From: a virus
Reading direction: 5' to 3' (one strand)
IMG/VR virus record: IMGVR_UViG_3300028045_000007
Coordinates: 1-64,000 of that record
DNA length: 64,000 nt
Shown here: positions 11,972 to 31,079 of the stretch, one piece after another
How the letters are laid out: each line of letters opens with the position of its first letter
How positions within the stretch are numbered: position 1 is the stretch's first letter
The notes under the pieces: model-generated
Seen by the model: only the letters and a program-made list of their open reading frames with translations
Database searches by the model: none
What the model was told of the DNA's origin: nothing
Program-made: the position numbers and the translations under genes

Positions 11972-12173
11972 CATAACCAGCCGTCACCCATGAGCCCGAC
12001 CGGCTGGTTGTTTCGAGGGGATTACAAAGAGTGGACAAACGCACCCGATTCTGCTGAATCAACCGGGTGCCTCCGAAAACCACAGCCGCAGGCAGGCGGA
12101 AGCGGTGATACAAGATGTCATCGCCCCCTCAGGAGCACCGGGATACGTCCTGGTGCTCCTTTTTCGTGTAATT

Positions 12174-12945: not shown

Positions 12946-13158
12946 TGTCCTGGGCAAAAGTCTGGTACGCATCCCTCCCTTTTTGGGCAATCGCCTGCCT
13001 GTATGCTGTCGAGCTATATTACAGGTACCACTGATCCATGGGCCACCCGATTACAGGTGGCCCATCTTTTTTCAGGAATGCAGTTGACTTCTCGCGATCG
13101 TACGGTATACTGACTGTGAATCGAACACAACGCAACTCAAGCAAAAGGACACAGAGCC

Positions 13159-14247
13159 ATGACCGATATCACTGGATTCTTCAACGCAAGGCAAGATGGC
13201 GACACGCACGCTAAAAGCCTCTTCACCGGGATCGGCGGCGACACCTCCGATACCATCATCTCCGACCTTCCGACCTTCCTGGAAGCCGCTGGCAGGGACT
13301 ACGGTATCCTCCGAAAGCCCGCCCTTGTGAATGATCCTTTCGGGGGAGTCGATGAGCACGGGAATATCGTTCCCGTCACCCGTGAGGTCGAAGGACAGTA
13401 TCACCTGACCCGTACCAATGATGGCCGGGTCGTCTCCCCTCACACTGTCACGGGGCAGTATGAGCCGCTGACCCTGCTCGATATCGCTGCTGAAATCCAG
13501 CCGTGGTGCGATGCCGGGTGGGTCACTCCCGATGCTGTCTACAGTGGCAAGAACGAATCCCTGGAGGTTCTCTGCCTCCGTATGGACGCCTCCGGAATGC
13601 TCCCGAACGGGGAACAATGGGATCACTATATCGTCTTCCGGAACCCGCACGGCTCCGGTGGCAAGGCCAAGGGAACCATTATCAGCTATAAGCCGGTATG
13701 TTCCAATACTTTCGGGGCTATCGGTCGCGGGATCGAATTCTCGGTGACTCACCGGATGTCCGCGAAAATGACCGAGGAAGAACGGCAGACCGTTATGGCC
13801 AAGCGGGTGGCGAAAGCGAAAGCCGCCTGGACTCAGGCCGACAAGTATATCGCCGGGCTCGCTCAGCGTATCAACGCCTGGAACGCCCAGCCCTTGACCG
13901 TGGTGCAAGCCGGTGCCCTGACCGATACCCTGCTCGGTATCAAGCCGGGAGCCGATCTCACGAACCGGGAGGAGGTTTCCAAGCAAGCCGCGAACAAGCG
14001 GGACGCGATCGTCCGAGGATTCTCAATGCCGCAATTCGGCACGAACGGTGCCACCCTGGGCGATTGGGTCAACGGTTTCACCTTCTGGAACTCCAGCCCG
14101 AATTCCGAAAGCGTGTCCAAGTCTCAAGTCGCCTCCGTGGATCGCATGATCCGGAACGTGGATCCGAACGGCTCCGGGTACAAGCTGGAAGCGAAAGCCC
14201 TCGAAATCGCTCGGCGTGTCCTGGACGGCACGATCACGCTGGCCTAA
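13159..14247 (+). CDS. DUF932-family protein
   Basis: YIVFRNPHGSG...PVCSNT...THR and the C-terminal W..NG.T.W pattern; own promoter. Confidence 0.75.
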   Translation: MTDITGFFNARQDGDTHAKSLFTGIGGDTSDTIISDLPTFLEAAGRDYGILRKPALVNDPFGGVDEHGNIVPVTREVEGQYHLTRTNDGRVVSPHTVTGQYEPLTLLDIAAEIQPWCDAGWVTPDAVYSGKNESLEVLCLRMDASGMLPNGEQWDHYIVFRNPHGSGGKAKGTIISYKPVCSNTFGAIGRGIEFSVTHRMSAKMTEEERQTVMAKRVAKAKAAWTQADKYIAGLAQRINAWNAQPLTVVQAGALTDTLLGIKPGADLTNREEVSKQAANKRDAIVRGFSMPQFGTNGATLGDWVNGFTFWNSSPNSESVSKSQVASVDRMIRNVDPNGSGYKLEAKALEIARRVLDGTITLA

Positions 14248-14630
14248 TCTTTACGCGGGCGGGGCTTGACAGCCCCGCCCCGTAAGGTATACTCTGGTAT
14301 GTCAAGACACACAATCGGAACCAAGCGAGGTTCCGTCCGGGGGGCTCCCCCCGATGTCTATGTAGGTTTCGGAGAATTCGACGAAACCGAGGAAGCCTGG
14401 GAGCCGACCATCCGGTTGGCAAAGAACATGGGAGCGTGGGTGCTCTGTATGATTCTCTCGGCTTTCCTGTTTGTGCTCATGGTAGCCTTTGGCTGGCTAC
14501 CTGACGATTTCCTAGATTGAGCCACGGGGCCGGTTCCGACCGGCCCCAATTATTTTTTCCTTTCCGCTTGACTTTCGAGTACCATGGGGTATACTGTCAC
14601 TGTTGAGGAGAGGAGATTGAAAACTCAGAT

Positions 14631-14825
14631 GGGGGGATAGCTCAATTGGTTAGAGCGGGTCGCCGCAAGGCGATGTCCTCAAGTCTTAGCCAGACTGTCG
14701 CACGGTTAGCTCCCGTGACGCATAGGAAAGCACCGGGGGGTTGCTCCCCTGAGAGACGAACAGGAATACAATATAACTCGAGGTTATTGTATCGGTTGCA
14801 GGTTCGAACCCTGCTCACCCCACCA
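14631..14825 (+). ncRNA. tRNA-shaped RNA with a ~135-nt structured insert replacing the anticodon arm
   Basis: 5' GGGGGGA-TA-GCTCAATTGGTTAGAGC; 3' GCAGG-TTCGAAC-CCTGC-TCACCCC-A-CCA; promoter TTGACT-N16-TATACT at 14568-14595. Confidence 0.8.
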
Positions 14826-15397
14826 CCTACAACCCTGTATAATTCTAGCAGCGTCACGCATACTAGTTACAGGGACCGATCGCGTCATGGTCTTCCTTCC
14901 GCCCTGCCAGAATGGCTCTGCCATTCTGACAGGGTGTTTTTTTCTATGTCCTCCCCACGGATCGGGATACTATTTCACAGTAGCAGTATATCACACCGGA
15001 GGCGGCTGTCAAGTCCTAAAACATAACTTTTACATTCCAGGTGCGGTGGTATGTGTAAAATCGGCCCCCTGAGGGGTCCAGGAGCCCGCGTGCCGCGTTT
15101 TTTCGCATAGCTCGCGATAGGCGTAGTCGCGTGACGGCCCAAACCTCGGCACAGAGCCGCACAGAGCGTCTCAGGGAAAAGCAAAAGAAATAAAGAAAGC
15201 ACTTGCCTTTCTCTCTCCATGCGGTATACTGCTGGCATGAATAAAGCATATTTCGTTGGGGCCGTGGGGCTCTCTCATACGCTACTGAGGCAGAAGCCGA
15301 GATAGCAAAAGACGGCGACCCCGATGGCTACTCTCTGATGGTCGAAGAAATAACGGAAACCGTTTGACTTCTCACGATTGTGGGGTATACTGAAACC

Positions 15398-16030
15398 ATG
15401 AAGGTAACGATCAAGCAACTCGAAACGGCAACGGGTACCCTCTCCAATCCCTCTAAAATGCCGGGTTTCGGCTACGGTATTCCGGCCCGCCATTGTATCA
15501 CGGGCGGTAGGCTTCGCAAGGTCGATTGCAGCGTATGCTCGCATTGCTACGGATGCAAGGGGCGATACGTATTCAAGAGCGTGGTAGCGGCTCAGGATCG
15601 CCGTTTCGCCTCCCTGGCAGACTTGGAAGTCTGGACTGCCAATATGACAGCCCTGATTTCGAGAAAACTCGAAAAGAAAGAGAAAGTCTTTCGCTGGCAT
15701 GATTCGGGCGATATCCAATCGGCGGAACATCTTTCCGCTATCGTGCAGATCGCTCGCAACCTTCCCGCGATTCAATTCTGGCTCCCGACGAAAGAATACG
15801 GTATTGTCCGTCGATGGCTCAGGAGCCACCGTATGCCTTCCAATCTCGTCATCCGGGTTTCGGCCCCGATGGTCGGCGAATCTCTCCAGGCCATTCCTGG
15901 CACCGTTTCGAGCACCGTGCAGACTGGAAAAGGTTTCGTATGTCCCGCCCCCGATCAGAATAACGAGTGTCAGGACTGCCGGGCTTGCTGGAATAAAAAC
16001 GTGAAATCAGTTGACTATCACAAGCAATAG
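15398..16030 (+). CDS. GP88-like Cys-rich phage protein
   Basis: LS.PSKMPG...C.TG..L...SVC..CY..KG.Y, FRWHDSGD, FWLPTKE, CPA..Q...C.DCRACW. Confidence 0.8.
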   Translation: MKVTIKQLETATGTLSNPSKMPGFGYGIPARHCITGGRLRKVDCSVCSHCYGCKGRYVFKSVVAAQDRRFASLADLEVWTANMTALISRKLEKKEKVFRWHDSGDIQSAEHLSAIVQIARNLPAIQFWLPTKEYGIVRRWLRSHRMPSNLVIRVSAPMVGESLQAIPGTVSSTVQTGKGFVCPAPDQNNECQDCRACWNKNVKSVDYHKQ

Positions 16031-16256
16031 GGTATACTGAAAGCACGTGGAAGCGAGGGGCCACTCGCCGCCACTAGGGTACACGGGCGAAATCCCAATC
16101 CCGCCGGTAGCCCCGTCAAGGTGAAATAATCCTGGCGGGGCTTGTTCTAGTCCCCTTGTAAGCTCGCTCACGGCCACGGGAAAAAATCAAGGTAGCTTAG
16201 CCACGCACGAAAAATGAAACGCCCGCACGCGGGCTCCCAGAGCGTCCGCTGTAATT

Positions 16257-16499
16257 GTGTTTTTCAAGTTGACAATACACAAACTTCCGTGTTACGGTAT
16301 CGTGGTCGAAGTCAATGATGTCGGCTATTGTGGCACCATCATGCCGGGGCAACTCACTCACCACATTTTCGAGGGGATCACCAGCATGGTCCTGGCTCAC
16401 GCTATTGCGGGAGTGGACATCGAGGACCCGAGGTATCTGGAGGGGATCGAAACCGCTGTAGAAAACGTTGAAGGATTACTTGACGAATCACGATCCTGA
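16257..16499 (+). CDS. Hypothetical protein
   Basis: ORF track; same strand as its neighbours. Confidence 0.5.
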   Translation: MFFKLTIHKLPCYGIVVEVNDVGYCGTIMPGQLTHHIFEGITSMVLAHAIAGVDIEDPRYLEGIETAVENVEGLLDESRS

Positions 16500-16513
16500 G
16501 GTATACTGAGGAC

Positions 16514-16738
16514 ATGGAAACAACAACACTCGCACCCGGGATCTACACGCTTTTCGTGCTGTATGAAAACGGCATCTGGGAACAGCCCCTCTATCGTATC
16601 GAGGGAGAGGGATGGACCGAGCACGCTATCGAGGCAATCGCTATCAATGCGAACCGCAAGATATTCTACGCTTGCGGAGTTCAGGAAGACCGCGACGCTG
16701 ACGAAGACCTTGCTGAGAACCTTGGAGAGTGCCCCTGA
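16514..16738 (+). CDS. Small leaderless hypothetical protein
   Basis: ATG a few nt after TATACT. Confidence 0.65.
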   Translation: METTTLAPGIYTLFVLYENGIWEQPLYRIEGEGWTEHAIEAIAINANRKIFYACGVQEDRDADEDLAENLGECP

Positions 16739-17250
16739 TGCAATGCACGCAACGCAAGAACACGATAGGCACCTACCGGAAGCTCAAGCGGCTCATCCTC
16801 CCGGGGGCCATGGTCCTAGACTATGGCTCTGGCTATGGCCTAGGGGCAACGTTGCTCCATGCGGACGCTTTCGAGCCCAATGCACGTGAGGGAGTATGGC
16901 CCACCTACACTCAGCCCCATCACATTCCCGCGAGTCTGTACGACGTGGTGGTATGTAACTGCGTGCTAAACGTGGTGGACAAGTGGGAGGATCGGGTGGA
17001 GATCATGAACCATATCGTGCGTGCCCTCAAGCCGGGTGGGTGTGCATACATCATGGCACGCTCGCATAGGGACGTGGGCGATATCAAGCACAAAACAGCA
17101 GAGGGAGACGGCTGGAGACTGAAGAACGGTGCTTTCCAGCGTGGATACGGTCGTGACGAGCTAAGGGGCTTCCTGGTGCCCTTCGGTGAGGTGACGCGGA
17201 TTTTCCGCATCAATAGTATCGGATTCTGCTTGACAACTCCTACTCCGTAG
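16738..17250 (+). CDS. Class I SAM-dependent methyltransferase
   Basis: VLDYGSGYG, YDVVVCNCVLNVV, LKPGG, FQRG. Confidence 0.85.
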   Translation: MQCTQRKNTIGTYRKLKRLILPGAMVLDYGSGYGLGATLLHADAFEPNAREGVWPTYTQPHHIPASLYDVVVCNCVLNVVDKWEDRVEIMNHIVRALKPGGCAYIMARSHRDVGDIKHKTAEGDGWRLKNGAFQRGYGRDELRGFLVPFGEVTRIFRINSIGFCLTTPTP

Positions 17251-17681
17251 GATACAATGAGAGCATGAAGCTCGTTCCGAAAACCCGCAAAGGGAAGAAC
17301 AGGCTCCACGAAGCGGGGACGGACGAGTGGCGTATCGTGAGACGGAGTGATTCCGTGATATGCTTCAACGGCAAGCCGGGCATCCTAATCGAGCCCGTGC
17401 TAGAGGATAGAACCAAAGCGGACAATAAGAGTCGCTGGGTCCTCGCTGACAATGATCCGGATTTTACGTGGGCCTAACGGCTCGCAGAACCATGGTACTC
17501 TATGAGATTTGGGACGGGAACCGTTATCGGTCAACCGTCATGCCCTCGGAAGACCTCGATGAGGTTATCAGCGAGGAAGGGAGACGATGCAATCGGCTCC
17601 ACGTGGTCAAGGTGGAAAACGGGAAAAGGAGCGATCTGGTTCCCGTCCGTCACGAGGACTATTCAGACGAGGAATACGGCG

Positions 17682-17981
17682 ATGAAGCTCGCAACTGAGT
17701 GGCTTTTCAAGCGGCCCGCACGTGCCCTCAAGATCTATTTCGGTGGTGGTAGAAAGGATGCCATCATCGAGAAATGCATCGACTGTGTAGGCACGAGCCA
17801 GGAAGCCAAGCTCTGCCCGTGCGTGGATTGCACGCTCTGGCCGTTCCGTCCTGGTGCTACCAAGGGCGAGGTTCCGGACCACGTGCCCTCACGTGAGGAG
17901 CTGGAAAGGCTCGCGGGCGAGAAGGTGCCCGATGCCGTGCGGGAGAACGCCCGCAAGATGGGCAACGCCCGGAAAGAGTGA
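17682..17981 (+). CDS. Cys-rich hypothetical protein
   Basis: AI..KC.DC...CPC..C.LWPFRP pattern. Confidence 0.7.
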   Translation: MKLATEWLFKRPARALKIYFGGGRKDAIIEKCIDCVGTSQEAKLCPCVDCTLWPFRPGATKGEVPDHVPSREELERLAGEKVPDAVRENARKMGNARKE

Positions 17982-18338
17982 GGTTTCTCACAATTCTATT
18001 TGACTATGCTCCGCTTTTGTTGTACTATGTACATATGAAGCGGAGCAAAGCCAAACGAAAGCCCAAGTCGGCAGAGAAAGCCCAGCGTGGTGCTGGTGCT
18101 GCTGCAAACGCTACCAAGGGCAGGGCTCGCACCTTCCGCAACCGCAAACGTGAGGCTGCACGTAAAGCGTGCAGGGGCAACCGATGATGCAAGCATGGAA
18201 CGTCTATCGTCCGAGCCACTATGGGAACCTGCGTCACATTGACACGGTATTCTATACAGCCGACTGCGATGCGGAGTGGGTCAAGGACACCCTTGTCAGT
18301 CATGACGGCTATCGTCCTGATATCATAGTGAGGAAGGC

Positions 18339-18680
18339 ATGAAGTATCCCGCAGTACGCCGCTACATGGGTCTTCGTGCTCGATACGCCGAAGAGGATTG
18401 CCCCCGGTGTGACGATCCTGGCTCTGGTATGTGGCTCGATACTCACCACAAGGCATGGATATGCACACGGTGCAAGCGTGCTAGTAGATACCACCTACAC
18501 AAAGCGAGCAGGAACTATCAGGGCAACCCCTATCAGGGGTCGTCCAATGATAACCAGCGGGCCGAGTGTGCCACCCTGGAGGAAGCCCGTGCCCTACAGT
18601 TGAAGCTGAGTAGGCGGAACGGTGTGGGCTGGCGGATCTACGATGCTGATACCCTTGAAGAAGTCGCGGGTCCTATTTGA
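18339..18680 (+). CDS. Zinc-ribbon hypothetical protein
   Basis: CPRC...CTRC. Confidence 0.6.
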   Translation: MKYPAVRRYMGLRARYAEEDCPRCDDPGSGMWLDTHHKAWICTRCKRASRYHLHKASRNYQGNPYQGSSNDNQRAECATLEEARALQLKLSRRNGVGWRIYDADTLEEVAGPI

Positions 18681-19278
18681 CTTCTCCCGATCCTGAGGTA
18701 CAATAGAACCATGAAGATCACTGGACAACTAATGACGCAACCGCAAGCCACAGAGACCGCCGATGGTAGAGTGTTGGTAGCGGTCTTTGGAGTCATCGCG
18801 GTACCCAAAGGGAGCGAACTGGACATCACCCATAGGCAATTCATTGTCGCTGGTGGTGCTGATTGGTCCGGTATGCACACCGATTTGAAGATCCACCACG
18901 TGGAGACGCAAGATCACCCCGAGTGTAGGGGCATGGGTGTTACCGGCATCCTCACTAGCCCCATTTGGCGGGTATGATGATCGAGCAAGTACGCGGCACC
19001 AGAGCCCCGTGGGACGAACGTATCCAAGCCCTATGGGATGAGCGTGTGGCTCCTCTCTTCGCCGATGGTGAAACGTGCAGCCATGCCAACTACTTCTCCC
19101 CTCGGCCATACGTGGACGAATACAACCGGGCTACTCGTTTCGAGGGATTCTGCTACACCGTGCAGCCGGGGTATCGTGTTTGCATAAAAGAATGGTTCCC
19201 CTCTTGACTAGTACCGATTAGGTGCTATACTGTCATCGTGAACGAGAAAACGACATTCATCCACGAACGAGAATAGAT

Positions 19279-19731
19279 ATGGGACAATACTACCACGTCG
19301 TGAACCTGGACAAACGCGAATACCTCCACCCGCATCGTATGGGGGACGGCTTGAAACTCCTGGAGTTCGGCTCCTCAGGTGACGGCACCATGCTCGGGCT
19401 TGCCGTGCTCCTGGCAGACGGCAACGGTCGCGGAGGTGGAGACCTTCACTCTGAGCATCCCATCATCGGCTCATGGGCAGGGGATCGCATCGTCATTGCT
19501 GGCGACTACGCTGACGAGGGGAACTACATCGCCGCCGAGGACATCACCCCCGAAATGGTGGAACAGATCCGCGACGACTACGGCGACGAGGAGAAGGAGG
19601 TAACGCACGAGACCATCACTCTCTACACGCTTTCCTGCGTATCATTCCGCGAGGTTTCGGAAGAGGTGCGGGCCGCCTTGCAGGGCGACCAGTGGTGTGC
19701 GGAGAACATGCGAGCGGGCTTCGGCTCGTAA
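19279..19731 (+). CDS. Hypothetical phage protein
   Basis: MGQYYHVVNLDKREYL...GLKLLE...GSWAGDRIVIAGDY. Confidence 0.75.
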   Translation: MGQYYHVVNLDKREYLHPHRMGDGLKLLEFGSSGDGTMLGLAVLLADGNGRGGGDLHSEHPIIGSWAGDRIVIAGDYADEGNYIAAEDITPEMVEQIRDDYGDEEKEVTHETITLYTLSCVSFREVSEEVRAALQGDQWCAENMRAGFGS

Positions 19732-19784
19732 CGAAAATCCTAGGGGCCGCTTGACAAAGCGGCCCCTAGTGCTATACTGTAGTC

Positions 19785-20357
19785 ATGAATCACGCCGAAG
19801 AATCAATAGCCTACTACCTTGAGCATTATAGCTCGTGCCGCCTTGCGGCCCTCAACGCCCTGCTATTCTGTCTCAGTGGTGGTGCGGAATGGAATACCAA
19901 CGGCCAGCTAGACAACTGCTCAAGCGAGGTGCCGCCCGAGAAATGGTATCCGCCGGGTGATAGCCCGGAAGAGGCTAAAGAGTTCCACGATGGAAACGAT
20001 GCTTTCGAGCGAGCGTACTATGCCGAGAACACTTGGCACAATTGGTTTGATGCGTTCGACGTGATGCATTTCCATATCGGTGCAGTACCCGATAACGTTA
20101 GCGACGACTGGCTAGCTGTGTGTATCGAAGCGTGCGAAGCGTACCTAGCCGTGCCCAAGTGGATGCCCAAGATTGCAATAGGGTTCGACTACAGCGGCGT
20201 AACGTACACCGATGATGGTGAGCAGGTGGGAGAGATGCAACGGATTATGGAGCCGTGGCGATCCGATCCCGAGCTGAAGCTAGATAAGCCAGCCGTTACC
20301 AAAATCCTGGAAAAACTACTTGCAATTCGTGCTGAGCGTGATACAGTAGAGGCATGA
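19785..20357 (+). CDS. Hypothetical protein, leaderless
   Basis: TTGACA-N16-TATACT then ATG 6 nt later. Confidence 0.7.
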   Translation: MNHAEESIAYYLEHYSSCRLAALNALLFCLSGGAEWNTNGQLDNCSSEVPPEKWYPPGDSPEEAKEFHDGNDAFERAYYAENTWHNWFDAFDVMHFHIGAVPDNVSDDWLAVCIEACEAYLAVPKWMPKIAIGFDYSGVTYTDDGEQVGEMQRIMEPWRSDPELKLDKPAVTKILEKLLAIRAERDTVEA

Positions 20358-20632
20358 GAGTCAAAGTCGAATATGCTGAGAATCCCGAGTGGGATGGAAT
20401 CATCGAGGGCGAGACATGGAACGATATCATGCACTCTGGAGTAGGTTGCACGGCTACTCGCATGACGGTGCTACCCGAGATCGAGACCTATGCCGATCTC
20501 CTCGCTCTCCAGGCAGAACGGTTCCCCGAGGGAGACGTATGTGAGGACAACGGGGGTCAACTCATCATATACACTGGTCTCCAAGAGACCAAGGGCGGGG
20601 AGTTGGAGCCAGCGGGAGAGCCGGAAGACTAG
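20354..20632 (+). CDS. Hypothetical protein sharing the GGQ(L/I)xIYTGL module with 21737..22063
   Basis: Shared C-terminal motif. Confidence 0.65.
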   Translation: MRVKVEYAENPEWDGIIEGETWNDIMHSGVGCTATRMTVLPEIETYADLLALQAERFPEGDVCEDNGGQLIIYTGLQETKGGELEPAGEPED

Positions 20633-20891
20633 AAGTCTGGCAAAACGCTTTACCTAAAATCCTACAGTGTGGCGTTTTGCGTTACTAAACACACCCCCAC
20701 CCCCAGCGGTACGCGGCCTGCCATTCTGGCAGGCTGCTGCCATTTTGGCTGTCAAGCACTTTCCGGCAACTCTTTGCCGGAAAAGATTTCCACCCCACAA
20801 TATCGACAATCCATTTGCTTTTCGTGCTCAGTGTAGTATGATGAGGTGTTCAATCAATCAACCAACCGCTCACCAGAGCAAGGTAACACCC

Positions 20892-21239
20892 ATGAACGTC
20901 ATCACCCAATCCGAAGCCGCGAACCTCATCCGTCAGAGTGGCGGCAAGCTCTTCGGAGTCACCTTCCTGACCCGTGGCAAGGGCAATCTCCGCCGGATGA
21001 CCGCACGGACTGGCGTCCGCAAGGGCACCACGGGCGAGGGCCAGAAGTTCAACGCCCGCGACCTCAACCTGATCACCGTTCACGAATTCGTGACGGATGA
21101 GGCACGGGACGCGAGGGGTCGCTATCGCAATCTCACCACCCAATTCCGGAACGTGGCGATCGAGGGAATCACCCGGCTCAAGGTCGGCGGAACCGAATAC
21201 GACGTGGTTCCGGACACTTCCGGAGACTCTCCCTTCTAG
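20892..21239 (+). CDS. SH3/WYL-like beta-barrel protein, paralog 1
   Basis: GGKLFGVTF....G..RRMTAR.GV.KG; close paralog of 23150..23476. Confidence 0.65.
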   Translation: MNVITQSEAANLIRQSGGKLFGVTFLTRGKGNLRRMTARTGVRKGTTGEGQKFNARDLNLITVHEFVTDEARDARGRYRNLTTQFRNVAIEGITRLKVGGTEYDVVPDTSGDSPF

Positions 21240-21736
21240 TCTAGCCCATAGGGCTAAACAAAAATCCAAGGCCCCGCTTGACAATGCGGGGCCTTGTGCT
21301 ATACTGAAGGCATGAAGAAATGCAGCACACACGGCGGAACGGAATGGAAAGGCGGCTACTGCGACAAGTGGTCCACCGATGCGGGGAAAGGCCCGTGCGT
21401 TGAGACTCACGAGCCCGAGCCCGGCACCTACGCCCACACGGCTCGTATGCTGGTCGATTGCGGGATGGACCCGGATGAGGCCGATCGCTGGAAAGACGAA
21501 ATGAAGGAGCGGGATCTGTAGCCTGCCACAATGGCGGGGCCTAGCGGCCCCGCTAGTCGCTCCCTAAGCTCCCTGGCGGAGACCACCCCGCACCCCGCGT
21601 GGCTTAGCTACGCATGGCGAGCGAGGGTAGGCACACAAGCCCGCACGGGCAGCCTGATAGCCTGCTGTGAGCTTGAAAAGAGAAAAGAAAAGGGAAATGC
21701 CGCTTGCCTTTTCCCAATCGTGTGGTATAATAGAGC

Positions 21737-22063
21737 ATGAAATACAAAATCACCTGGACAGAGAATGTTGGTTACGAAGCAATCGTCGAAGGAGCAGACA
21801 GCCCCGAGCAGGCCCTAGAGTGGTTCCAAGATGATGCGGGCGAGTGGAATCCTCAGTCTACCGACTACTGTGAAATCGAACAGGACTCAATCGAGGTAGA
21901 GCCCTACTTTGATTCCAAAGAACAGCTTTCGGAACTCTGTTTCAAGCTGAGGACCGTACTCCCTCACCTGGAAGCTACCAGAGACGAAGGGGGTCAGATC
22001 GTGATCTACACTGGTCTCAAACTCACCGACCAAGGCAATCTGATCGAGCACGAACCCGAGTAG
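21737..22063 (+). CDS. Cassette gene, hypothetical
   Basis: Leaderless after a repeat-borne promoter. Confidence 0.7.
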   Translation: MKYKITWTENVGYEAIVEGADSPEQALEWFQDDAGEWNPQSTDYCEIEQDSIEVEPYFDSKEQLSELCFKLRTVLPHLEATRDEGGQIVIYTGLKLTDQGNLIEHEPE

Positions 22064-22650
22064 AATCAGAAGTGTGGAAAAAGGCTTTACTTAGAATTTC
22101 AGCAGTCTAGGAAAATCCTTTACTTACATATACCACACACCCTTGGGGGCCGCCAGATTGGCGGTCTCCTGCCATTGTGACAGTCAAGGGAAATCGCCGA
22201 AATATTCGTGTCAAGCGAAATCACCGGAATATTCTTTTCGAGAATTCACTTGACAATCGCCTATCGTGGGGTATACTCTCACCATGAAGCAACCGACAAG
22301 CGAATACAGGCTGGCCATGGCGGACAAGGTGGACGAGTGGATACCCGCGTGCGGTGGTCACGAGGAGCCATTCACGGTCAACCATACCCGCTGGCAATAC
22401 ATGTACAACCCGGCCACGGGTGAGCATGGCTATCTGAATCTCGATACCGATATCATCGAGACTCCAGAATGGCTCTAGGTGACCCTCAGGCGGCCCACGG
22501 GCCGCTCTGCGAGGCTTTATTTTTTCGCACGTGGCTAAGCCACGCGGGCGGGCGGGCGGTGCCCGCAGCGGGCCGCACAGGCCGCGTGAGAGCATAAAAG
22601 AAAAGCAATTGAGAACTTGACAATCGCAGATCGTAGGGTATACTGTAGTC

Positions 22651-22782
22651 ATGAAAGCCAAAAAAATCCGTGTACCAGTGCAATGCAATGAGTGTGGAAA
22701 AAAGTTCAAGGTCACGAACTTGAGTGGACGGTGCCCAAAATGCCGAGGATGCGATTTCGAGCCTACTTTTGAAGTAGCCTAG
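22651..22782 (+). CDS. 43-aa zinc-ribbon cassette gene
   Basis: MKAKKIRVPVQCNECGKKFKVTNLSGRCPKCRGCDFEPTFEVA; fills the gap between two repeats. Confidence 0.7.
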   Translation: MKAKKIRVPVQCNECGKKFKVTNLSGRCPKCRGCDFEPTFEVA

Positions 22783-23149
22783 CGTCCACGAGAGGGGTCT
22801 ACGGGCCTCTCTCCGGGGTTATGTTTTTTCCCGCGTGGCTAAGCTACGCGGAAATCGACTCGTGCCCGCAGCGGGCCGCACAGGCCGTCTGAGAGCATAA
22901 AAGAAAAGCAATTTAGAATTTGACTTTTCGAGTTCACGTGGTACAATGTAACCATGACAAGAAAGATCATTGAGGACCAGGGACAGTTCTACGCTGTCGA
23001 ATACGACCCGCACTATCCCGCCGAGGTTACCATCATCGGCACTTTTGCCGATCGGGAAAAAGCCCAGGAAGTTCTTGACAAACGCTCCTGATAGGGTATA
23101 CTCTCAGTGTTCATCGACTGCTACCGCCGACAAGGCAAGGCAAACAACT

Positions 23150-23476
23150 ATGACTCAGATCACTCAGACCGAAGCCGCCCGCATGATCCGCAACTCCGGG
23201 GGCAAGCTCTTTTCCGTCACGTTCACGAAGCGGAGCACTGGCTCCCGTCGCCGCATGACCGCCCGCGTGGGCGTTCGCAAGGGCGTTTCGGGTGGCGGGC
23301 AGCGGTTCAATCCCGCCGACCATCATCTCTTGACCGTTCACGAATTCGTGACGGACCCCGCACGGGGCGACAGGGGGCAACTCAGCAATATGGGCACGCA
23401 ATGGCGGAGTGTGCCGATTGACGGGATCACCGAGCTTCGGTGCGGTGGCCAAATCTTCCAAGTGAAGGACGCCTAG
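23150..23476 (+). CDS. SH3/WYL-like beta-barrel protein, paralog 2
   Basis: GGKLFSVTFTKR..G..RRMTARVGVRKG. Confidence 0.65.
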   Translation: MTQITQTEAARMIRNSGGKLFSVTFTKRSTGSRRRMTARVGVRKGVSGGGQRFNPADHHLLTVHEFVTDPARGDRGQLSNMGTQWRSVPIDGITELRCGGQIFQVKDA

Positions 23477-23664
23477 AAAACACCCCCGCAGGGGCGGCTG
23501 AGGCCGCCCCTGCGGACTTCTCCCGAGCTTTATTTTTGGGCACGTAGCTTAGCCACGCTGAAATCGCCACGTGCCCGTGGCGAGCCGCACAGGCCCGATG
23601 AGGACACGAAAAAGAAAAAGGGTATTCTACTTGCAATTTCAAGGCAATAGGGTATAATGAAACC

Positions 23665-23997
23665 ATGACGAACAGCAAGAACAACCGCAGCGAACGCAGC
23701 ATCCTTCTCTCCGTCTTCTCGGACGTGTTCAAGGATGTCAACGGCTTCCGCCCTACGGGGTGCCTGTTCCCCTCGGAATGCACCGAGGAGGAGATCCAGG
23801 CCAAGCTGGACGCCCTCCAGGTGACCCTGGAGGAGCAACTTGCCGAGGAGCAGGCTATCGACGATGATCTGGATGAGCGTTTCGAGGATTGGCGGGATGA
23901 CGCCGAAGCCATGGATGGCGATTTCGACAGCGGGATGGCTTCCGCCGGTTTCGGTACGGATGAGGACTACGGCTGCTATGGCGATGACGGCTGGTAA
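23665..23997 (+). CDS. Acidic cassette protein
   Basis: SDVFKDVNGFRP and MASAGFGTDEDYG; leaderless. Confidence 0.75.
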   Translation: MTNSKNNRSERSILLSVFSDVFKDVNGFRPTGCLFPSECTEEEIQAKLDALQVTLEEQLAEEQAIDDDLDERFEDWRDDAEAMDGDFDSGMASAGFGTDEDYGCYGDDGW

Positions 23998-24426
23998 GCC
24001 GACAAGGGAGCGAACAATGCGACTCAGTTACCAATGGACCGGAACGAACGATAGGGGCGATGGCGAGGCGGATCTGGAACTTGAACCCCCTTGTTGTCCG
24101 GATCACTGTGGCGGCGACCTCTTTCTCGAAAGCGACCCCCGCGACAACCCCGAAAGCGAAGTGTGGCGGTGCTGCGACTGCAAACTAACATGGGACGGCT
24201 GCGGCTACGAAATCGAAGACGAGGAGTAGCCTGCCAGAATGGCGGGGCCTAGCGGCCCCTCCAGTCACTCCAGGAGCCCGCGTGCGGGGAGCGACCTCGA
24301 CCCCTTGTGGCTTAGCCACGCGGAAATTGACTCGTGCTCGTGGCGGCCCGTATGGGCCGCCTGAGGGCACAAAAAGAAAAGCAATTTGGTTCTTGCATTT
24401 CGAGGATAGTGTGGTATTATCTAACC

Positions 24427-24627
24427 ATGGAATACATCGACAGCAACGGCGACACCTGGACCATCTCCCTTGACCCGAAGCCCATCCCGACAGCGGCTCT
24501 GGATATCGACTACTGCCATGAGGACTACGATGGGGCTCCTGACGCCCACGATCACCGTTGTGGCAACGCGGGCAGTATTGCCGAGGCCAAGGCGATAATC
24601 GAAGAGATCGCGGCAGACTACGCCTGA
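24427..24627 (+). CDS. Cassette gene, hypothetical
   Basis: PKPIP...HEDYDGAPDA.D.RCG; leaderless; between repeats. Confidence 0.7.
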   Translation: MEYIDSNGDTWTISLDPKPIPTAALDIDYCHEDYDGAPDAHDHRCGNAGSIAEAKAIIEEIAADYA

Positions 24628-24833
24628 AAAACCCCGCACGGGCGGCTCAGGCCGCCCCTGCGGGCTTCTCGCGAGCTTTATTTTTTCCCGTGTGGCTTAG
24701 CTACGCTGAAATCGCCACGTGTCCGTGGCGAGCCGCACAGGCCCGCTGAGGGACACAAAAAGAAAAAGCATTTAGAGCTTGCTTTTTTGAGTACAGATGA
24801 TATACTCTCAGTGTTCAAACAAAGGAGCAAACC

Positions 24834-25124
24834 ATGAACAAGCACGAAGCAACACGTCTCGCATCGCTGGCCAAAGGCAAGGCCCTCATCCTGGAAGGCC
24901 AGTTTGAAATCCTGGACACCGTTGTCACTTTCGAGTTCAGGCCCGGCACCCCGGAGTTCGAAGTCGGCTGCAAGGCCCTTGAGATCCTGGAGGCAAAGCT
25001 GGAGGCCGCACAAGGTGAGGCTACAATGCTCTGGGGACTCGCCCTGGATGACATCGAGGAGCCTGGAGAAGAGTACACCGAGCAGGATGCTGCTCGCGAC
25101 TTCGGGGCCGAGCCCAAAGATTGA
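24834..25124 (+). CDS. Cassette gene, hypothetical
   Basis: AAGGAG RBS; between repeats. Confidence 0.7.
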   Translation: MNKHEATRLASLAKGKALILEGQFEILDTVVTFEFRPGTPEFEVGCKALEILEAKLEAAQGEATMLWGLALDDIEEPGEEYTEQDAARDFGAEPKD

Positions 25125-26813
25125 CCGCTGCTCCTCTGGCGGCCCCTCGCAGAAAGCTGCGAGGGGCCGTTTCTACGTGTCCAGGAGCCCCGTGGGCGAG
25201 AGCCCACAAAACGCACGTGGCTAAGCCACGCGGGCGTGCCGGTGGTGCCCACAGCGGGCCGCATGGGCGGCCCCGTGGAGTCCTGTCAGAGCGAAAAATA
25301 AAATTGAGATACTACTTGCCTTTTCGAGTTCTTGTGATATACTCTCAGTGTGAAGCAAACAATCATCAAAGGAGCAAACATGCAGTACACTCACAGCGTT
25401 TGGGAAGATCACGGACATTTCATCGGGTTGCGGCTTGGCAATTGGGAACTCCTCATGTACACGGGGGCGGATGAGCCTTTTTGGAAGGTGTCCAGAATGC
25501 AACGGCGTGGTTGCTTCCGGGGCGGTATGCACTTCCTGCGGTACTTCTCCCTGATCCGCTACTGGCCCTCAGAGGTGCATCATGCCGAGCTTGGTTGAAC
25601 ACCTCCTGGAACGTCTCCAGCGAGCTTCAGAGGAGCGACAGCGGCAGCACGAGGCAATCATGCGAGAGCTTGTCGAGACGAAAATCACGCCGATGGATCG
25701 GGAATGGATCGTCCGCAAAAATCGGGACAAAGAAATAAAAGATTGAGCTTGACAAAACGCCAGGGTAGGGTATACTCTGGCGTTCAATCAAACCAACAAA
25801 GGAGCCAGCATGATTCTTCAAGTGACCTACCAAGACGCCAGCGAGCCCGATTGCTGCCGAGTGGACTACATCGTGACCGTGGACGGCACCGAGCACTGCC
25901 TCGCCCCGTCCGCCCTCGGCACCAAGTACAACGACCGGGAAGCTATCGAGCGTGCCCGCATGCTCTTCGGCCCCGGCGTCTGCCTGCTCTTCTGATGCTG
26001 CTCCTCCTCTGGCCCCTCGCAGAAAGCTGCGAGGGGCCATTTCTACGTGTCCAGGAGCCCCGTGGGCGAGAGCCCACAAAACGCACGTAGCTAAGCCACG
26101 CGGAAATTGACTCGTGCTCGTGGCGGGCCGTACAGGCCCGCTGAGAGCACAAAAAGAAAAAGCATTTAGTTCTTGCATTCTGACGATTGTGTGATATAAT
26201 GACACCATGAACGACACGAGCAAGAGCGATAAGCGGTACGGGCAGAGCGGGGAGTGGGGCAAGCTCTCGCAAGCCTACCGCAAGGCCGCGAACAAAAAGA
26301 GCCGCAAGAAAGCCAAAAAAGAACTTGACAATCCCGCTCAGTAGGGTATACTGTGGCAACTTCAACAAAGGAGCAAGACATGACCCAGTTCAACGACAAC
26401 CTTGAAATCGGCGGAGACCTTCAGGACGAGTACAAGGCCATTCAGGAGGCCGAGCTGCTCGCAGAGGCCCCCGAGCCCGAGCCGATGACCCCCGCCGACG
26501 AAGAGGGCTTTTACGCGGAATGGTGCTACGATAACGGGGTGACCCCCGAGGAGATGGCTCTCGCCCAGGAGATGATCGAATTCGAGGAACGCTAGTGCAT
26601 CGCTGCTCCTCCTCTGGCCCCTCGCGGAAAGACCCGCGAGGGGCCATTTCTACGTGTCCAGGAGCCCCGTGGGCGAGAGCCCACAAAATCAGCGTAGCTA
26701 AGCCACGCGGAAATCGCACCGTCTCCGCACGCGGGCATACAGGCACGCTGAGAGCACAAAAAGAAAAAGCATTTGGTTCTTGCATTTCGAGGATAGTGTG
26801 ATACTATCTAACC

Positions 26814-27329
26814 ATGAAGCAACGGAAAGAAATCATCTCGGCAACGCGGGCCATCCTTCACGAGTGCGTCCAGCTTGCCCCCCAGTGGGATCGCGAAATC
26901 AACAACGTGACCATCACGATCAACTCTCGGCTCACCGCGTGTGCGGGAAGGGCCAACATCCTGAAGGGAGAAATTCAGATTTCCCTTCCCTACTTTGCCG
27001 ACGATGGCAACTTCAACACCGCCCTTCGGGAAGTGGTTACGCATGAACTGGCCCATCTCCTCTCTCCCCCGACTCTCAAGGGACGCAAGAGAGACGTTCA
27101 CGGGCGAGCCTGGAGGGCCATGCACCGCCTCCTCGGTGGCAATGGTGACCGTTGTCACACTCTGGAGCTTGCGGCAGGCTACCAACGCAACACGCGGGGC
27201 CGTACGGCTCGTGTAGCGGTCTCCTGCGGTTGCGGTTGTGGCCAGCCAATGAAGCTGGGGCCGACTCAACTCAAGAGACACAATCGGGGTGAAACGTACT
27301 GCCTGAAGGGCCACAGACGCCGGTTCTAG
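26814..27329 (+). CDS. SprT-like zinc metalloprotease domain protein
   Basis: RLT..AGRA, VVTHELAHL (HExxH), HGRAW, C-terminal Cys cluster. Confidence 0.85.
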   Translation: MKQRKEIISATRAILHECVQLAPQWDREINNVTITINSRLTACAGRANILKGEIQISLPYFADDGNFNTALREVVTHELAHLLSPPTLKGRKRDVHGRAWRAMHRLLGGNGDRCHTLELAAGYQRNTRGRTARVAVSCGCGCGQPMKLGPTQLKRHNRGETYCLKGHRRRF

Positions 27330-28051
27330 AAAACACCCCCGCAGGGGCGGCTCAGGCCGCCCCTGCGGGCTTCTCGCGAGCTTTATTTTTTCGCCTGTGG
27401 CTAAGCCACGCGGAAATCGCCTCGTGCCCGCACGCGGGCGTACAGGCCCGCTGAGGACACAAAAAGAAAAACGATTTAGAATTTGCTATTTCGAGGTAAT
27501 CGGGTATACTGTGGCATGGTCAAGACAGACGACAGCCAGACGCGGGAACACCTCACCATCCTCACCATCACTGACAGCCACGGAATGGTCGTGCTGAGTG
27601 AGACCGTCCGGAAGGACGACGCAGAGGCCATCATCGCGAAGTTCCTCTCCACTATCCGCTAGGAGCCTTCTATGTACCCTGAGTTTACCCTGATCGACGA
27701 TGGCACGCTTGATACAGTATGCCAGTGTGACCGTTGTGGCGAAGTCCTGCGGTTCTCTGGGGCCACGAGAGACGAATTGGGATATGTTGATCCTGAGTGG
27801 CTTGCCGATCAGGCCGAGCATCATGCCGACAGCGGCGATTGTGCCGACTAGCAGCCACCCGGAGGGGTCCAGGAGCCCCTCTCCAGGGCTCTATTTTTTC
27901 CCGCGTAGCTAAGCCACGCGGAAATGAGCCCGTGCCCGCTGCGGGCCGCACAGGCCCGATGAGGGACACAAAAAGAAAAATCAATTAGTGCTTGCATTCT
28001 GACGATTTCGAGGTATACTGTTCACATGGATACAGCAAGCGAAACGAACCA

Positions 28052-28474
28052 GTGGGCCACGTTCAACTTGAGATTTTTCACGTACGAGCGGTAGACTCCC
28101 ACCGAGGACAACTCGACAAGGGGGGTCTACCCTACATTCTGCACCCCTTGACCGTAATGGGGAGCGTGGACGGCATAGAGGCCAAGACCGTGGCCGTGCT
28201 GCACGACGTGGTAGAAGACACGCACGTATCGCTGGAGACGCTCTCCTTCCTTTTCCCTGATCTCATCGTGCGGGCCGTGGACGCTATCTCCAAACGTGAA
28301 GGGGAACTCAATCGAGCCTATTGGGAGCGTGTCAAGGCTAACCCGCTGGCCCTGGAGGTCAAGCTGGCAGATATCGCTCACAACACCTCGCCCGGTCGAG
28401 TGGCCGCACGAATCGAAGCAAGGCACGAAGCGAAAAAAACCGCAATGGTGGAGAAAGCCCATGCTGGAGAATGA
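28052..28474 (+). CDS. HD-domain hydrolase (SpoT/Mesh1-like)
   Basis: H.GQ.DKGG.PYILHP, AVLHDVVEDT, VKLADI.HN; start codon uncertain. Confidence 0.85.
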   Translation: MGHVQLEIFHVRAVDSHRGQLDKGGLPYILHPLTVMGSVDGIEAKTVAVLHDVVEDTHVSLETLSFLFPDLIVRAVDAISKREGELNRAYWERVKANPLALEVKLADIAHNTSPGRVAARIEARHEAKKTAMVEKAHAGE

Positions 28475-29348
28475 TGACATGTATGACATGGGGGTCACTA
28501 TGTGCTCGGCTGGTGTCGTGCTCGTGGTGCTCTTGCCCATCGGGCTGGCCGTGTCCCTGCTGATCGTGAGCTTTCTGTAGGATAGGAAAGCCGAAAAATC
28601 CTACAGTGTCACAATCCCCCTTTAGGGGCCGGGTATGTGCGTTCTACTCCCTAGTGCGTAGGCAATTCGTTCCTGGGAAAATCCTTCCCAGCAATCCTTT
28701 CGTACGTATTAGTGCGTATGGAAATTCTATCATAGAAGCATACCATACCCTGAGTGGAAGTCAAGCAAAATCACCGAAATCTTTTGATATTTTCCGTGCC
28801 AAGTGGATTCCACAAAACAAAATAGCAGAACTGAATTGTCCTAACCCGCTGCAAAAGCACGAGTTAGGGCGTTTTCGAATACTACATTGGCCCGCCGATT
28901 TGCTTCTCGCCCATAGCAGGGTATACTGTCCCCATGAGTGAAGCACAAGACAACGGAATGGAAATCGCCGAGCGGGATGCCGCTCAAGAACAGAACGCCG
29001 AGAAGACTACACTGTCCGGCATTGGTAAGATGCTTAGGGGCATAGTCAAGAGTAACCCACACGGTGCGGAGTACTGGCGAGATGCCGCTCGCCGGATTCA
29101 GGAACGGATGTTCCAGGACATCGTGTAGAAAAAACCCCGCACGGGCGGCTGAGGCCGCCCCTGCGGGCTTCTCCCGAGCTTTGTTTTTTCGCACGTGGCT
29201 AAGCCACGCGGAAATCGCCCCGTGTCCGCACGTGAGCGTACAGGCCCGCTGAGGACACAAAAATAAAAGCAATTTAGAACTTGCATTTTCCCAATACTGT
29301 GGTATACTGTCGGCGGATTGAGAAACACGAAACCACGGAACAAACGAA

Positions 29349-29450
29349 ATGACCACCCGCACCTGCCTCACCTTGCTGACCCTCGCCGCTGGCACCGCCT
29401 GCTGGCTCGTTTTCGCTCTCGCCTCTACCGCTACCGCTGCTGGTCTCTAG
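29349..29450 (+). CDS. 33-aa hydrophobic peptide, paralog of 30289..30397
   Basis: MTTRTCLTLLTLAAGTACWLVFALASTATAAGL. Confidence 0.55.
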   Translation: MTTRTCLTLLTLAAGTACWLVFALASTATAAGL

Positions 29451-30112
29451 AATGAAAACCGAAACTATCTACATCGACGGCCAGCCGGTTGTCGCCTACG
29501 TGGTCGAATCCGCAGCCGATCTCGATTCCCTGCTGAGCAAGGCCGCCCTTGGGGTTGACCCTGAGCCCGAGCCCGAGCCCGATACCTGCGAGATGTGCGG
29601 GGATCCCTCTGGTGGGCATACCCTGTGCGGGGAGTGTAATGACTACGTTTTCGGTTTCGAGGACTGGTGCGGTTGGGAAAACGCCTATGGCGAGGAGGCA
29701 TACTAGCATGGTATTCGATCCTATCACTAAGGGCTACCCCTGCTATGCTGAGTGGTGCCGTGTGCGGGCTGCCCTGATAGCCCTTCCTGACCATCCCCAA
29801 CGTATCCCTACTGTGCGTATGGCGATAGCCTCCCTGGTGCGTACCCTCAGGGGCAAGGGTGAGCGTGGTACTGCTGCTGGGGTATTGCACTATACCACGT
29901 GGCTGGGCTACCCTGTATCGGACGCTCAACTAGACAATCGGTACCACTGAGCATCCCACTAGGGGCGGCTGAGGCCGCCCCTGTGGCCCCTTCCTGGGGA
30001 CCTACCTGTACCATGCGTGGCTTAGCTACGCACAAAAAAATAAACGCTAGTACGCACGCTCCTGGGCACGTTAGAGCGTACCCTGTAGGGTACTATATAC
30101 GCATATGTGCAT

Positions 30113-30192
30113 AGCAAGGCACGTGCCAAGTGATGCGTATGAGAGAATCCATATTCCCCACACGACGCAAGTCGTTGTATTTCAAGGGGTTA
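30113..30192 (-). promoter_or_regulatory. Sigma54-type promoter with upstream IHF-like sites
   Basis: Minus strand TTGGCACGTGCCTTGCT (30129-30113) matches TGGCACG-N4-TTGCW; back-to-back WATCAA-N4-TTR-like sites at 30168-30192. Confidence 0.65.
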
Positions 30193-30288
30193 GGAGCATA
30201 GGGATAATCTCTCGCTTGCACTCTCGACCGCACCCCTAATAGTATGGTATACTGTCAGCGGATTGAGAAACGGCAAACAAGGAAACGA

Positions 30289-30397
30289 AATGACCAACCT
30301 CATCACCCCCCGCACCGTCCTCTTCGCCCTCGCCCTCTCCGCCGCCGCCTACGTCGTGTCGGCCCTCGCCAATGCCGCTACCGCCGCCGGTCTCTAG
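30289..30397 (+). CDS. 35-aa hydrophobic peptide
   Basis: MTNLITPRTVLFALALSAAAYVVSALANAATAAGL; same leader GCGGATTGAGAAAC as the 29349 gene. Confidence 0.55.
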
Positions 30398-30679: not shown

Positions 30680-31079
30680 GAAATCCTTTCCTACCCCACC
30701 CTCCCTGCCAAGCTGACACCCTCCTGCCAAGATGGCAGGGGGGGTTTTTTCGTTCTGCCAGAATGGCAGGACGCCGGAATCCGGCTAGGTCCCTCACAAA
30801 CACAGCAACACGAAAACTCGGTTAAGAGTTACTCAGTACCTTTGCTGTCCAACCTATAGCAGCTAAGATAGTCATCCCAACGAATGTCCCATCCAGCCTC
30901 AGACAATTCAACAGCAACCAATCGCTTCACCGCTACACTTAACGCGTAATGCCGTAATTCACCATTGTCGTAGCCATCGAGCAATCTTGACCGCACGTAT
31001 TTCAAGAACTTTTTAACTTCGCGTCGATAACGGTTCATACGATACTTTTCGAACTCTTGAGGGGTTGGTATACCAGCCA

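Follow-up and report, generated by a model that had tools for sequence, protein, structure and literature searches.

The first 64 kb (hereafter the window) of IMGVR_UViG_3300028045_000007, the record of an uncultured marine phage (154,408 bp, estimated completeness 99%), contain an array of repeated cassettes lying between small genes. From 21522 to 29348 there are 12 full intergenic units (U1 to U12), each of 171-256 bp and each running from a stop codon to the next start codon, followed by a partial, rearranged copy at 29951-30060. As direct repeats over a span of ~8.5 kb, the cassettes set apart groups of one to four small genes (33-171 aa). The first-pass annotation, made from the letters of the window, had described about 13 units of 170-250 bp between groups of one to three genes; the array itself proved real, with counts and sizes revised as given here. 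Sigma-70-type promoters (TTGNNN, 16-17 bp, TATACT) crowd two stretches, 11.6-29.3 kb on the plus strand and 4.4-15 kb on the minus strand, and there are nearly none elsewhere. Given this packing of promoters on the plus strand, the array therefore sits in the rightward early region.

Read in the direction of transcription, a unit comprises a GC hairpin, an A/T tract, the palindrome GTRGCTWAGCYAC, the sequence GCGG, a GC-rich spacer, an A-tract and a sigma-70-type promoter. The GC-rich hairpin module begins a few bases past the upstream stop codon and occurs in four interchangeable types, namely type A (U4, U6, U10, U12 and the terminal copy), type B (U7, U8, U9), type C (U1, U5) and type D (U2, U3, U11). 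The spacer is ~45 bp long and contains CACAGGCCCGCTGAG, and a AAAAAGAAAAAG-type tract lies immediately 5' of the -35 box, with T-rich counterparts in related phages. At the promoter end of the unit, a -35 box that is mostly TTGCAT or TTGCTT (TTGCWT) is followed after 16 bp by TATACT. All 12 units carry a predicted promoter of the form TTGNNN, 16 bp, TATACT-like, and the promoter scan returned 25 sites against 7.3 expected. The modules listed in the first-pass annotation (three hairpins, a GGAAATCG...CACAGGCCCGCTGAG linker, an A-tract and a promoter) are thus all present, except that the hairpin types number four rather than three. Individual units fold with clearly lower energy than shuffled controls (z -2.7 to -5.2). 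At the large hairpins the sense-strand T-run is ~10 nt off or absent, and several of them score better as minus-strand terminators; overall, the predicted hairpin module looks like a terminator or an insulator.

The cargo consists of ~25 small plus-strand genes (21312-30397; 33-171 aa), mostly without a known family. One encodes an SprT-like metalloprotease domain (26814-27329, plus strand; Pfam E = 1e-12), and a search for viral loci with this gene found none. Another encodes an HD phosphohydrolase (~28052-28474, plus strand; phrog_990, E = 2e-34). Apart from two phrog_2267 paralogs, the other cargo genes gave a few weak, uninformative family matches (E 6e-5 to 0.009) or no match. Paralogs are present among the cargo, as had been noticed from the sequence: two phrog_2267 genes (20892-21239 and 23150-23476) and two genes for membrane peptides (29349-29450 and 30290-30397), all on the plus strand. 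The host-takeover or anti-defence roles once proposed for these genes are plausible, but the annotations did not bear them out, as the cargo is nearly all of unknown function apart from the SprT-like protein and the HD hydrolase.

The palindrome and its spacing to the promoter

The pattern GTRGCTWAGCYACGC, with one mismatch allowed, gave 25 strand-matches. They fall on 14 sites, all within 16192-30031, against the 0.01 that shuffled sequences lead us to expect; the other 124 kb of the 154-kb genome contain none. These sites include a lone outlying palindrome upstream of the array (16192-16204), found by the pattern search. When 33 units from five genomes were aligned, the sole invariant columns were T.GCT.AGC.AC, and the G and C that follow, as well as the G two positions on, were at least 90% conserved. 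It should be noted that GCGC occurs 0 times in the 154-kb genome and CGCG 290 times, so that the repeated 13-bp palindrome is kept in a genome otherwise purged of some short palindromes.

At least nine further genomes or contigs of uncultured phages have the same architecture, as terminase-based relatives (59-79% amino-acid identity) and pattern scans showed. We denote the phage under study as G000, related genomes as G001 to G010, and loci or contigs by L-numbers. There are 10 palindromes in G001, three to four in G002, seven to eight of the variant CTAGCTTAGCTAC in G005 and one in G007; L079 and L074 have eight and three, L076 has four, and L075 and L080 have two each. Seven palindromes were also found in L105 (JAJFGR010000014.1), a 5488-bp contig binned with an Alphaproteobacteria metagenome-assembled genome. 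L105 shows no other DNA similarity to the window and may be either a mis-binned phage contig or a weak hint of the host. The architecture was not found in more distant relatives, a megablast search of the array against 50,697 isolate phage records gave no match, and a metagenome scan returned new array-bearing contigs with no close relative of G000 among them.

Several properties bear on whether the palindrome works as RNA or as DNA. Taken as a stem, it has only one variable pair (positions 3/11), which is AU in 8, GC in 7, GU in 6 and unpaired in 12 of the 33 aligned units, with A.C mismatches being common. No compensatory change was found in this stem, and its covariation was no higher than in 401-495 of 500 column shuffles. 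The flanks were compared across ten genomes or contigs, in 51 promoter-linked units. A or T stands at positions -10 to -6 from the palindrome in 41-50 of these units, and an A/T run, present in 42 of the 51 against a background of 14%, always ends 4-6 bp 5' of the palindrome; downstream of the palindrome comes GCGG. The runs consist of A (23) or T (19) in roughly equal numbers. In RNA, an A-run could not stand in for a U-run, yet in DNA A-runs and T-runs are equivalent, both giving a narrow minor groove. The spacers yield a weak consensus fold (-8.4 kcal/mol, covariation term -0.29), and no Rfam family matches the array units. Because of the missing covariation, the equivalence of A- and T-runs and the weak spacer fold, we read the palindrome as a double-stranded DNA site for a protein; together with its flanks it behaves as a predicted binding site of this kind and not as an RNA hairpin. 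A reading of the palindrome as a promoter for a phage RNA polymerase was dropped, the site being symmetric and the genome giving no match to a T7-like polymerase in a search whose control was silent.

The position of the palindrome relative to the promoter follows a rule. Taken between the centre of the palindrome and the final base of the -10 box, the distance in G000 is 106-108 bp in ten units, 120 bp in U7 and 126 bp in U1. The corresponding values are 96-98 bp in six units of G001, 108 bp in two, and 117 and 127 bp; 99, 108 and 108 bp in G002, with 104 bp at a degenerate site, ATGGCTAAGCCAG; 107-108 bp in seven units of G005; 108 bp in G007; and 108 bp in six units of L079, with one of 119 bp. 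Shorter distances occur in L075 (88 and 88 bp), L076 (88 and 99 bp) and L080 (86 and 98 bp), and L105 has 99, 99, 108, 108 and 109 bp. All these distances cluster at 86-88, 96-99, 106-109, 117-120 and 126-127 bp. A periodogram with one observation per genome and length class, L105 being left out, peaked at 10.0-10.1 bp (R = 0.74, p ~5e-5 against uniform spacing, n = 19), and the deviations from the modal 108 bp are multiples of ~10 bp (p ~3.5e-4). The spacing is kept even where the spacers are unalignable, as between G000 and G005 (32% identity) and in L105 (no BLAST similarity). On its other side, the palindrome stands at variable distances from the upstream stop codon (59-105). The steps of ~10 bp to the -10 box, along with the variable distance to the stop codon, indicate that the palindrome is coupled to the downstream promoter via the helix face. 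The palindrome is thus a predicted helically phased operator tied to the downstream promoter, centred near -94, -104, -114, -125 or -134 when the end of the -10 box is placed at -7.

The promoters of the array differ from other early promoters of G000 in their -35 boxes, which are of the TTGC type in 10 of the 12 palindrome-linked promoters and in 2 of the 19 unlinked early ones (Fisher p = 8e-5); 17 of the 19 unlinked promoters have a TTGAC-type box. Such putatively weak -35 boxes fit promoters that need upstream help, with the proviso that the copies are not independent. Another feature of the early region is the closeness of start codons to promoters. In 19 of the 31 plus-strand early promoters (11597-29308) an ATG lies 5-6 nt past the -10 box, typically as TATACT NNNNCC ATG AA, so that the mRNA would begin at the A of the ATG and is predicted to be leaderless. 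The remaining early promoters have a strong AAAGGAG Shine-Dalgarno site, and the relatives are alike in this.

The slot of the palindrome is not always filled by the same sequence. G001 has a second, non-palindromic 13-mer, GTAGTATAGACAC, in ten copies (L021/L022, G001 85207-99779), which takes the place of the palindrome in at least seven units of that genome and lies 97-99 or 107 bp from the -10 box, as the palindrome does. This suggests that the operator module may have more than one specificity.

Module mosaicism and cargo turnover

Pairwise alignments of the units show near-identity that starts or stops precisely at one of three places, the palindrome, the TGAG/A-tract or the -10 box, which agrees with the early impression that modules are shuffled between copies. 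For example, U7 and U8 share ~97% identity over the stretch that begins at the stop codon and closes at the palindrome's 3' edge, and they are unrelated beyond it. U4 and U6 are near-identical as far as the A-tract, and U6 and U7 have only the -10 box and leader in common. U5 combines three sources: up to the palindrome it matches U1, between palindrome and A-tract it matches U8, and beyond the A-tract, as far as the ATG, it matches U9. The nearest neighbour consequently differs among the segments of one unit. Similarity of hairpin modules is uncorrelated with that of promoter modules (Mantel r = 0.05, p = 0.31), and adjacent segments are weakly correlated (0.25 and 0.49).

Units resemble those of their own genome. 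Similarity within a genome is 0.49-0.81 in G000, G001 and G005 and 0.45 in G002, where three pairs only are available; between genomes it is 0.32-0.46 for most pairs, with a maximum of 0.71 (G005/G007). The nearest neighbour comes from the same genome for 30 of the 33 units. This likeness within genomes, together with an operator core that is invariant across them, points to homogenisation plus selection.

The gene content between the repeats has also changed. While six genes of the 12.7-18.2 kb block are colinear between G001 and G000, about 9 of 25 array genes have homologs in G001; these stand in the order 4,1,5,6,3,2,7,8 relative to G000, and three are duplicated in G001. Cargo order and content are accordingly not fixed among relatives, a comparison for which the first-pass annotation had called. 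That annotation had also seen no integrase in the window and proposed a search of the rest of the genome. In the 99%-complete genome, no match was found to tyrosine (PF00589) or serine (PF00239) recombinases, with positive controls, and a RecA/UvsX-family gene was found at genome positions 89076-89816 (E = 1.6e-46). We infer that the modules may be shuffled by homologous rather than site-specific recombination.

A candidate binding protein and the interpretation of the array

A candidate for the operator-binding protein is encoded at 12733-12945 (plus strand, 70 aa), the first gene past the early promoter at 12649. The protein has an AT-hook-like N-terminal arm (KR..GRPxxFP) followed by a strand-helix-helix pattern resembling ribbon-helix-helix proteins. 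The arm is invariant as KRGRGRPxxFP in the homologs and reads KRTVGRP in G000, where this is the only protein with the KR..GRP motif. A PDB profile search gave Arc and a CopG-family protein (E 0.5-1.7, below significance), and Pfam searches with the homologs gave sub-threshold matches to AT_hook, RHH_1, Arc and CopG (E 0.02-0.05 for the last three). For an AlphaFold model with a pLDDT of 66, the top Foldseek matches were nearly all ribbon-helix-helix proteins (CopA, Arc, MatP, omega, PutA, AmrZ; E 0.4-5). These weak but consistent signals suggest an AT-hook plus ribbon-helix-helix protein. Operators of ribbon-helix-helix proteins are typically ~13-21 bp long with two-fold symmetry, and a protein of this predicted build would fit an operator made of an A/T tract and a 13-bp palindrome. 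The candidate resembles the repressors Arc and Mnt of P22 and CopG in being small (~50-70 aa) and strand-helix-helix, with Arc and CopG as its top structural and profile neighbours; it differs from them in its AT-hook-like arm and in an operator that lies ~100 bp upstream instead of overlapping the promoter. That this protein binds the palindrome is a tentative suggestion on our part.

The gene for the candidate is present wherever the start of the early region is available in the palindrome-bearing clade, including L076, and in all complete relatives. The sequences of G003 and G008 end just past the gene and are uninformative for this phyletic profile, and G010 has two copies of it. A homolog search with the candidate returned itself alone. 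Among 41 distant loci with an early GP88-family gene, there was neither the palindrome, nor another repeated palindrome, nor a homolog of the candidate. Searches of G000 for other regulators were negative for HU/IHF and HTH_3 and gave sub-threshold matches only for HTH_17, and Pfam recognised no DNA-binding domain in ten other early proteins.

The phage itself is not T4-like on the evidence of its portal, terminase and capsid. The large terminase gene (49231-51255) and the portal gene (51311-53734) are nearest to non-T4 families, and the closest isolate relatives of the portal are Bacillus siphoviruses and phage G (19-28% identity). No match to a Gp23-family capsid was found in the phage, in a search whose control was uninformative.

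We consider it probable that the array is a set of cassettes like the promoter/stem-loop cassettes (PeSLs) of T4-type phages, here with an added phased operator, shuffled by homologous recombination in the variable early region of a lytic phage. In such a system, a sequence-specific protein would bind the operator and act on the promoter from one face of the helix, and about a dozen transcription units would thereby be co-regulated. The binder would be the phage's own early AT-hook plus ribbon-helix-helix protein or, alternatively, a host factor; the A/T-rich tract upstream of the -35 box would be UP-like, and transcription would often start at the A of the ATG. A RecA/UvsX-like recombinase would support homologous recombination and gene conversion between repeats, swapping modules and homogenising copies. 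Recombination between cassettes would also reshuffle, duplicate or delete the intervening genes, as in T4-type PeSLs.

PeSLs consist of a GC stem-loop, an AT-rich tract and a strong sigma-70-like early promoter and lie upstream of small genes whose function is unknown, within the variable early region (Arbiol et al. 2010, PMC2839356; Comeau et al. 2014, PMC4122927). The homology of their copies provides crossover points that need no dedicated recombinase; shuffling was shown experimentally, the behaviour being defined by mini-circles and by indels between near-identical phages (PMC2839356, PMC4122927). The array has the same GC hairpin, AT-rich tract and sigma-70-like promoter; it likewise precedes genes without a known function, and its variable region adjoins the colinear 12.7-18.2 kb block. 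However, its units are about twice as long, its phage shows no T4-type signature, and it adds a 13-bp palindrome that is invariant, flanked asymmetrically by an A/T tract and GCGG, and helically phased to the promoter. Many array genes are leaderless, whereas PeSLs have a Shine-Dalgarno site, and recombination in the array is suggested by sequence mosaics and permuted cargo, whereas that of PeSLs is known from mini-circles and indels. The array had been called an independent and more elaborate counterpart of PeSLs, and the phased operator and the missing T4-type capsid and portal signature agree with that description.

Some observations weigh against this interpretation. We found no close genome pair in which a cassette gain or loss breaks in a repeat; the sole close pair, L074 and L079 (96.7% identity), is colinear throughout 3.2 kb, and nucleotide identity with the other relatives is just 65-77%, too low for fine mapping. 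The proposal of a gene-acquisition platform in particular finds no backing in that pair. The spacing classes are partly inherited by copying, so that the observations in the periodogram are conservative and not fully independent. An operator centred at about -114 would be unusually far upstream for a sigma-70 promoter, and the non-palindromic 13-mer of G001 is unexplained by a single dimeric binder. As for the candidate binder, every line on its fold is below significance (E 0.02-2; pLDDT 66), and homologs also occur in G004 and G010, which have one palindrome or none; since these two genomes carry the gene without arrays, the phyletic distribution does not single it out.

Two known systems of repeated sites offer other explanations. 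In the stoperators of cluster A mycobacteriophages, an asymmetric 13-bp site is bound by a monomeric helix-turn-helix immunity repressor (L5 gp71) of a temperate phage, which blocks elongation (PMC9283540). The array shares with them a dozen or more 13-bp sites in short intergenic gaps, in one orientation to transcription if the asymmetric flanks are counted, and, as predicted, a single regulator for many units. A phage repressor could then halt polymerase arriving from upstream, the spacing to the promoter being incidental, and upstream hairpins that are weak terminators would leave room for such a roadblock to help. However, the core of the array site is a two-fold palindrome with asymmetry only in its flanks, no lysogeny genes were seen, no integrase was found and there is no sign of a temperate lifestyle. 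Moreover, the distance to the upstream hairpin or stop is variable, whereas that to the downstream -10 box is quantised at ~10 bp, and we regard a roadblock as improbable. An integron would account for the repeat-gene-repeat layout, the unrelated small genes, the structured palindromic repeats and the coincidence of breakpoints with the palindrome, if the palindrome and hairpins were attC-like sites at which a dedicated site-specific recombinase captures and excises cassettes. No IntI-type tyrosine or serine recombinase was found in this nearly complete genome, which has a RecA-like gene, and we consider such a platform hardly credible. Each unit has its own promoter instead of one common promoter, the repeat is a short invariant 13-mer instead of a long imperfect attC, and the breakpoints are spread over several conserved blocks, including the A-tract and the -10 box, as is typical of homologous exchange at any conserved block.

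The remaining explanations concern what acts on the palindrome. An RNA-level element, in which the hairpins and a palindromic stem-loop in read-through transcripts serve as RNase III/E sites, 3'-end stabilisers, or sites for antitermination or RNA-binding proteins, would be in line with the folding of the units below shuffled controls, and the large hairpins, not being canonical terminators, make read-through plausible. The palindrome nevertheless lacks compensatory change and often has A.C mismatches, the flanking tract is A or T in roughly equal measure, the spacer fold is weak with no Rfam match, and spacing by the helical period is a property of DNA; there is little chance that RNA is the active form. 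A host global regulator or nucleoid protein might bind the palindrome, with mosaicism as a passive by-product of duplication that has no role in gene flux. This would suit the negative searches for a classical phage regulator and the ribbon-helix-helix homolog that is more widespread than the palindrome. However, when 185,579 species genomes were scanned, no bacterial genome had several copies of the extended site, the sole multi-copy match being the 5.5-kb phage-like contig L105; there were otherwise chance single matches, and no host regulon was found. The differing cargo order between relatives and the second 13-mer of G001, which suggests diversification of specificity on the phage side, also speak against a host factor, and we judge this explanation unlikely, although less so than an RNA element or a roadblock.

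PeSL-like cassettes with a phased operator thus remain our preferred interpretation. A fuller scenario is possible, and we put it forward with caution: a marine phage clade would use plug-in cassettes in which a phage AT-hook/ribbon-helix-helix regulator acts at -94 to -134 on UP-assisted, often leaderless promoters with weak -35 boxes, and in which the operator module can be swapped, so that recombination would rewire both gene content and regulatory class. To our knowledge, T4-like phages are the only ones in which shuffling cassettes of the PeSL type had been described. The array would be the PeSL-type solution, self-contained expression units that double as crossover points, in a lineage without T4 hallmark genes, and it suggests a general way in which large lytic phages may keep a fast-evolving pool of small early genes. 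The operator is well defined by comparison alone and may provide a case of far-upstream, face-of-helix control of sigma-70 promoters. The site and the candidate protein would offer a handle on early-gene timing in an uncultured phage group, and the many early genes with exactly leaderless starts also hint at the host and at the way in which the genes are expressed.

Individual units, compact cassettes and neighbouring features

All 12 units lie on the plus strand. U1 (21522-21736) has a type-C hairpin without a T-run, the palindrome at 21599-21611, the promoter at 21704-21731 and an ATG at 21737, with a palindrome to -10 distance of 126 bp. The two type-D units that follow have leaderless start codons: U2 (22479-22650), whose hairpin has a T-run, has its palindrome at 22531-22543, promoter at 22617-22644 and ATG at 22651 (107 bp), and U3 (22783-22953) has these at 22835-22847, 22920-22947 and 22954 (106 bp). 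U4 (23477-23664; type A) is also followed by a leaderless ATG at 23665, with the palindrome at 23544-23556 and the promoter at 23631-23658 (108 bp). The mosaic U5 (24230-24426), with its U1-like type-C upstream part, U8-like middle and U9-like promoter, has the palindrome at 24307-24319 (107 bp). U6 (24628-24833; type A) has the palindrome at 24692-24704, the promoter at 24779-24806 (108 bp) and a Shine-Dalgarno leader in common with U7.

Type-B hairpins characterise the next three units. U7 (25125-25380) has the palindrome at 25217-25229 and the promoter at 25316-25343 (120 bp). In U8 (25996-26206) the palindrome lies at 26087-26099 and the promoter at 26173-26200, upstream of a leaderless ATG at 26207 (107 bp), and in U9 (26596-26813) they lie at 26694-26706 and 26780-26807, upstream of the leaderless ATG at 26814 that starts the SprT-like gene (107 bp). 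U10 (27330-27516; type A) combines a palindrome at 27397-27409, a promoter at 27483-27510 and a leaderless ATG at 27516 (107 bp). U11 (27852-28025; type D) has the palindrome at 27905-27917, the promoter at 27992-28019 and an ATG at 28026 (108 bp), and U12 (29129-29348; type A) the palindrome at 29195-29207, the promoter at 29281-29308 and a 40-nt leader (107 bp). The terminal partial unit (29951-30060) has a type-A-like hairpin at 29961-29986 and a palindrome at 30017-30029; its A/T run is on the opposite side, and there is no promoter at the phased distance.

The frame that starts with the leaderless ATG at 28026 is only 22 codons long. The HD phosphohydrolase, which has a homolog in G005, is in another frame, and its start would be a GTG near 28052 with no visible ribosome site. 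The region 28026-28474 may therefore contain either an odd start, a frameshift or an assembly error.

Two hairpin types have further features. At the type-A hairpins at 27338-27369 and 23485-23516, the terminator score is on the minus strand, where the hairpin is followed by GGTGTTTTCT. On the plus strand, the T-run is ~10 nt away, beside a small alternative hairpin with the same TGCGGG arm. These hairpins may be bidirectional insulators against antisense transcription. The type-C module starts right after the stop codon with CTGCCA-N3-TGGCRG, copies of which occur at 21523-21540, 24231-24248, 20717-20738 and 30719-30743 of the window and at 93846-93870 and 96100-96130 of G001; the copy at 30719-30743 has the form of a canonical terminator. 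The region around the type-C motif is common to G000 and G001, with 76-78% identity over ~100 bp.

The early region also contains a compact, PeSL-like cassette on the plus strand at 19730-19789, with a second copy at 21257-21316. In both, the loop of a GC hairpin carries the -35 box TTGACA, and TGCTATACT with the -10 box and a leaderless ATG follow; read on the minus strand, this hairpin has a T-run after it. With a hairpin around the -35 box, these compact cassettes resemble classic PeSL subtypes of T4-type phages, and further ones occur in G004 at 40345, 40618 and 43324. Elsewhere in the window, an RIIA gene lies on the minus strand at 2478-4451. A minus-strand ORF of 172 aa (5750-6268) has an N-terminus that, judged by eye, resembles a response-regulator receiver domain (MLILVLEDD...LFLDHDLG).

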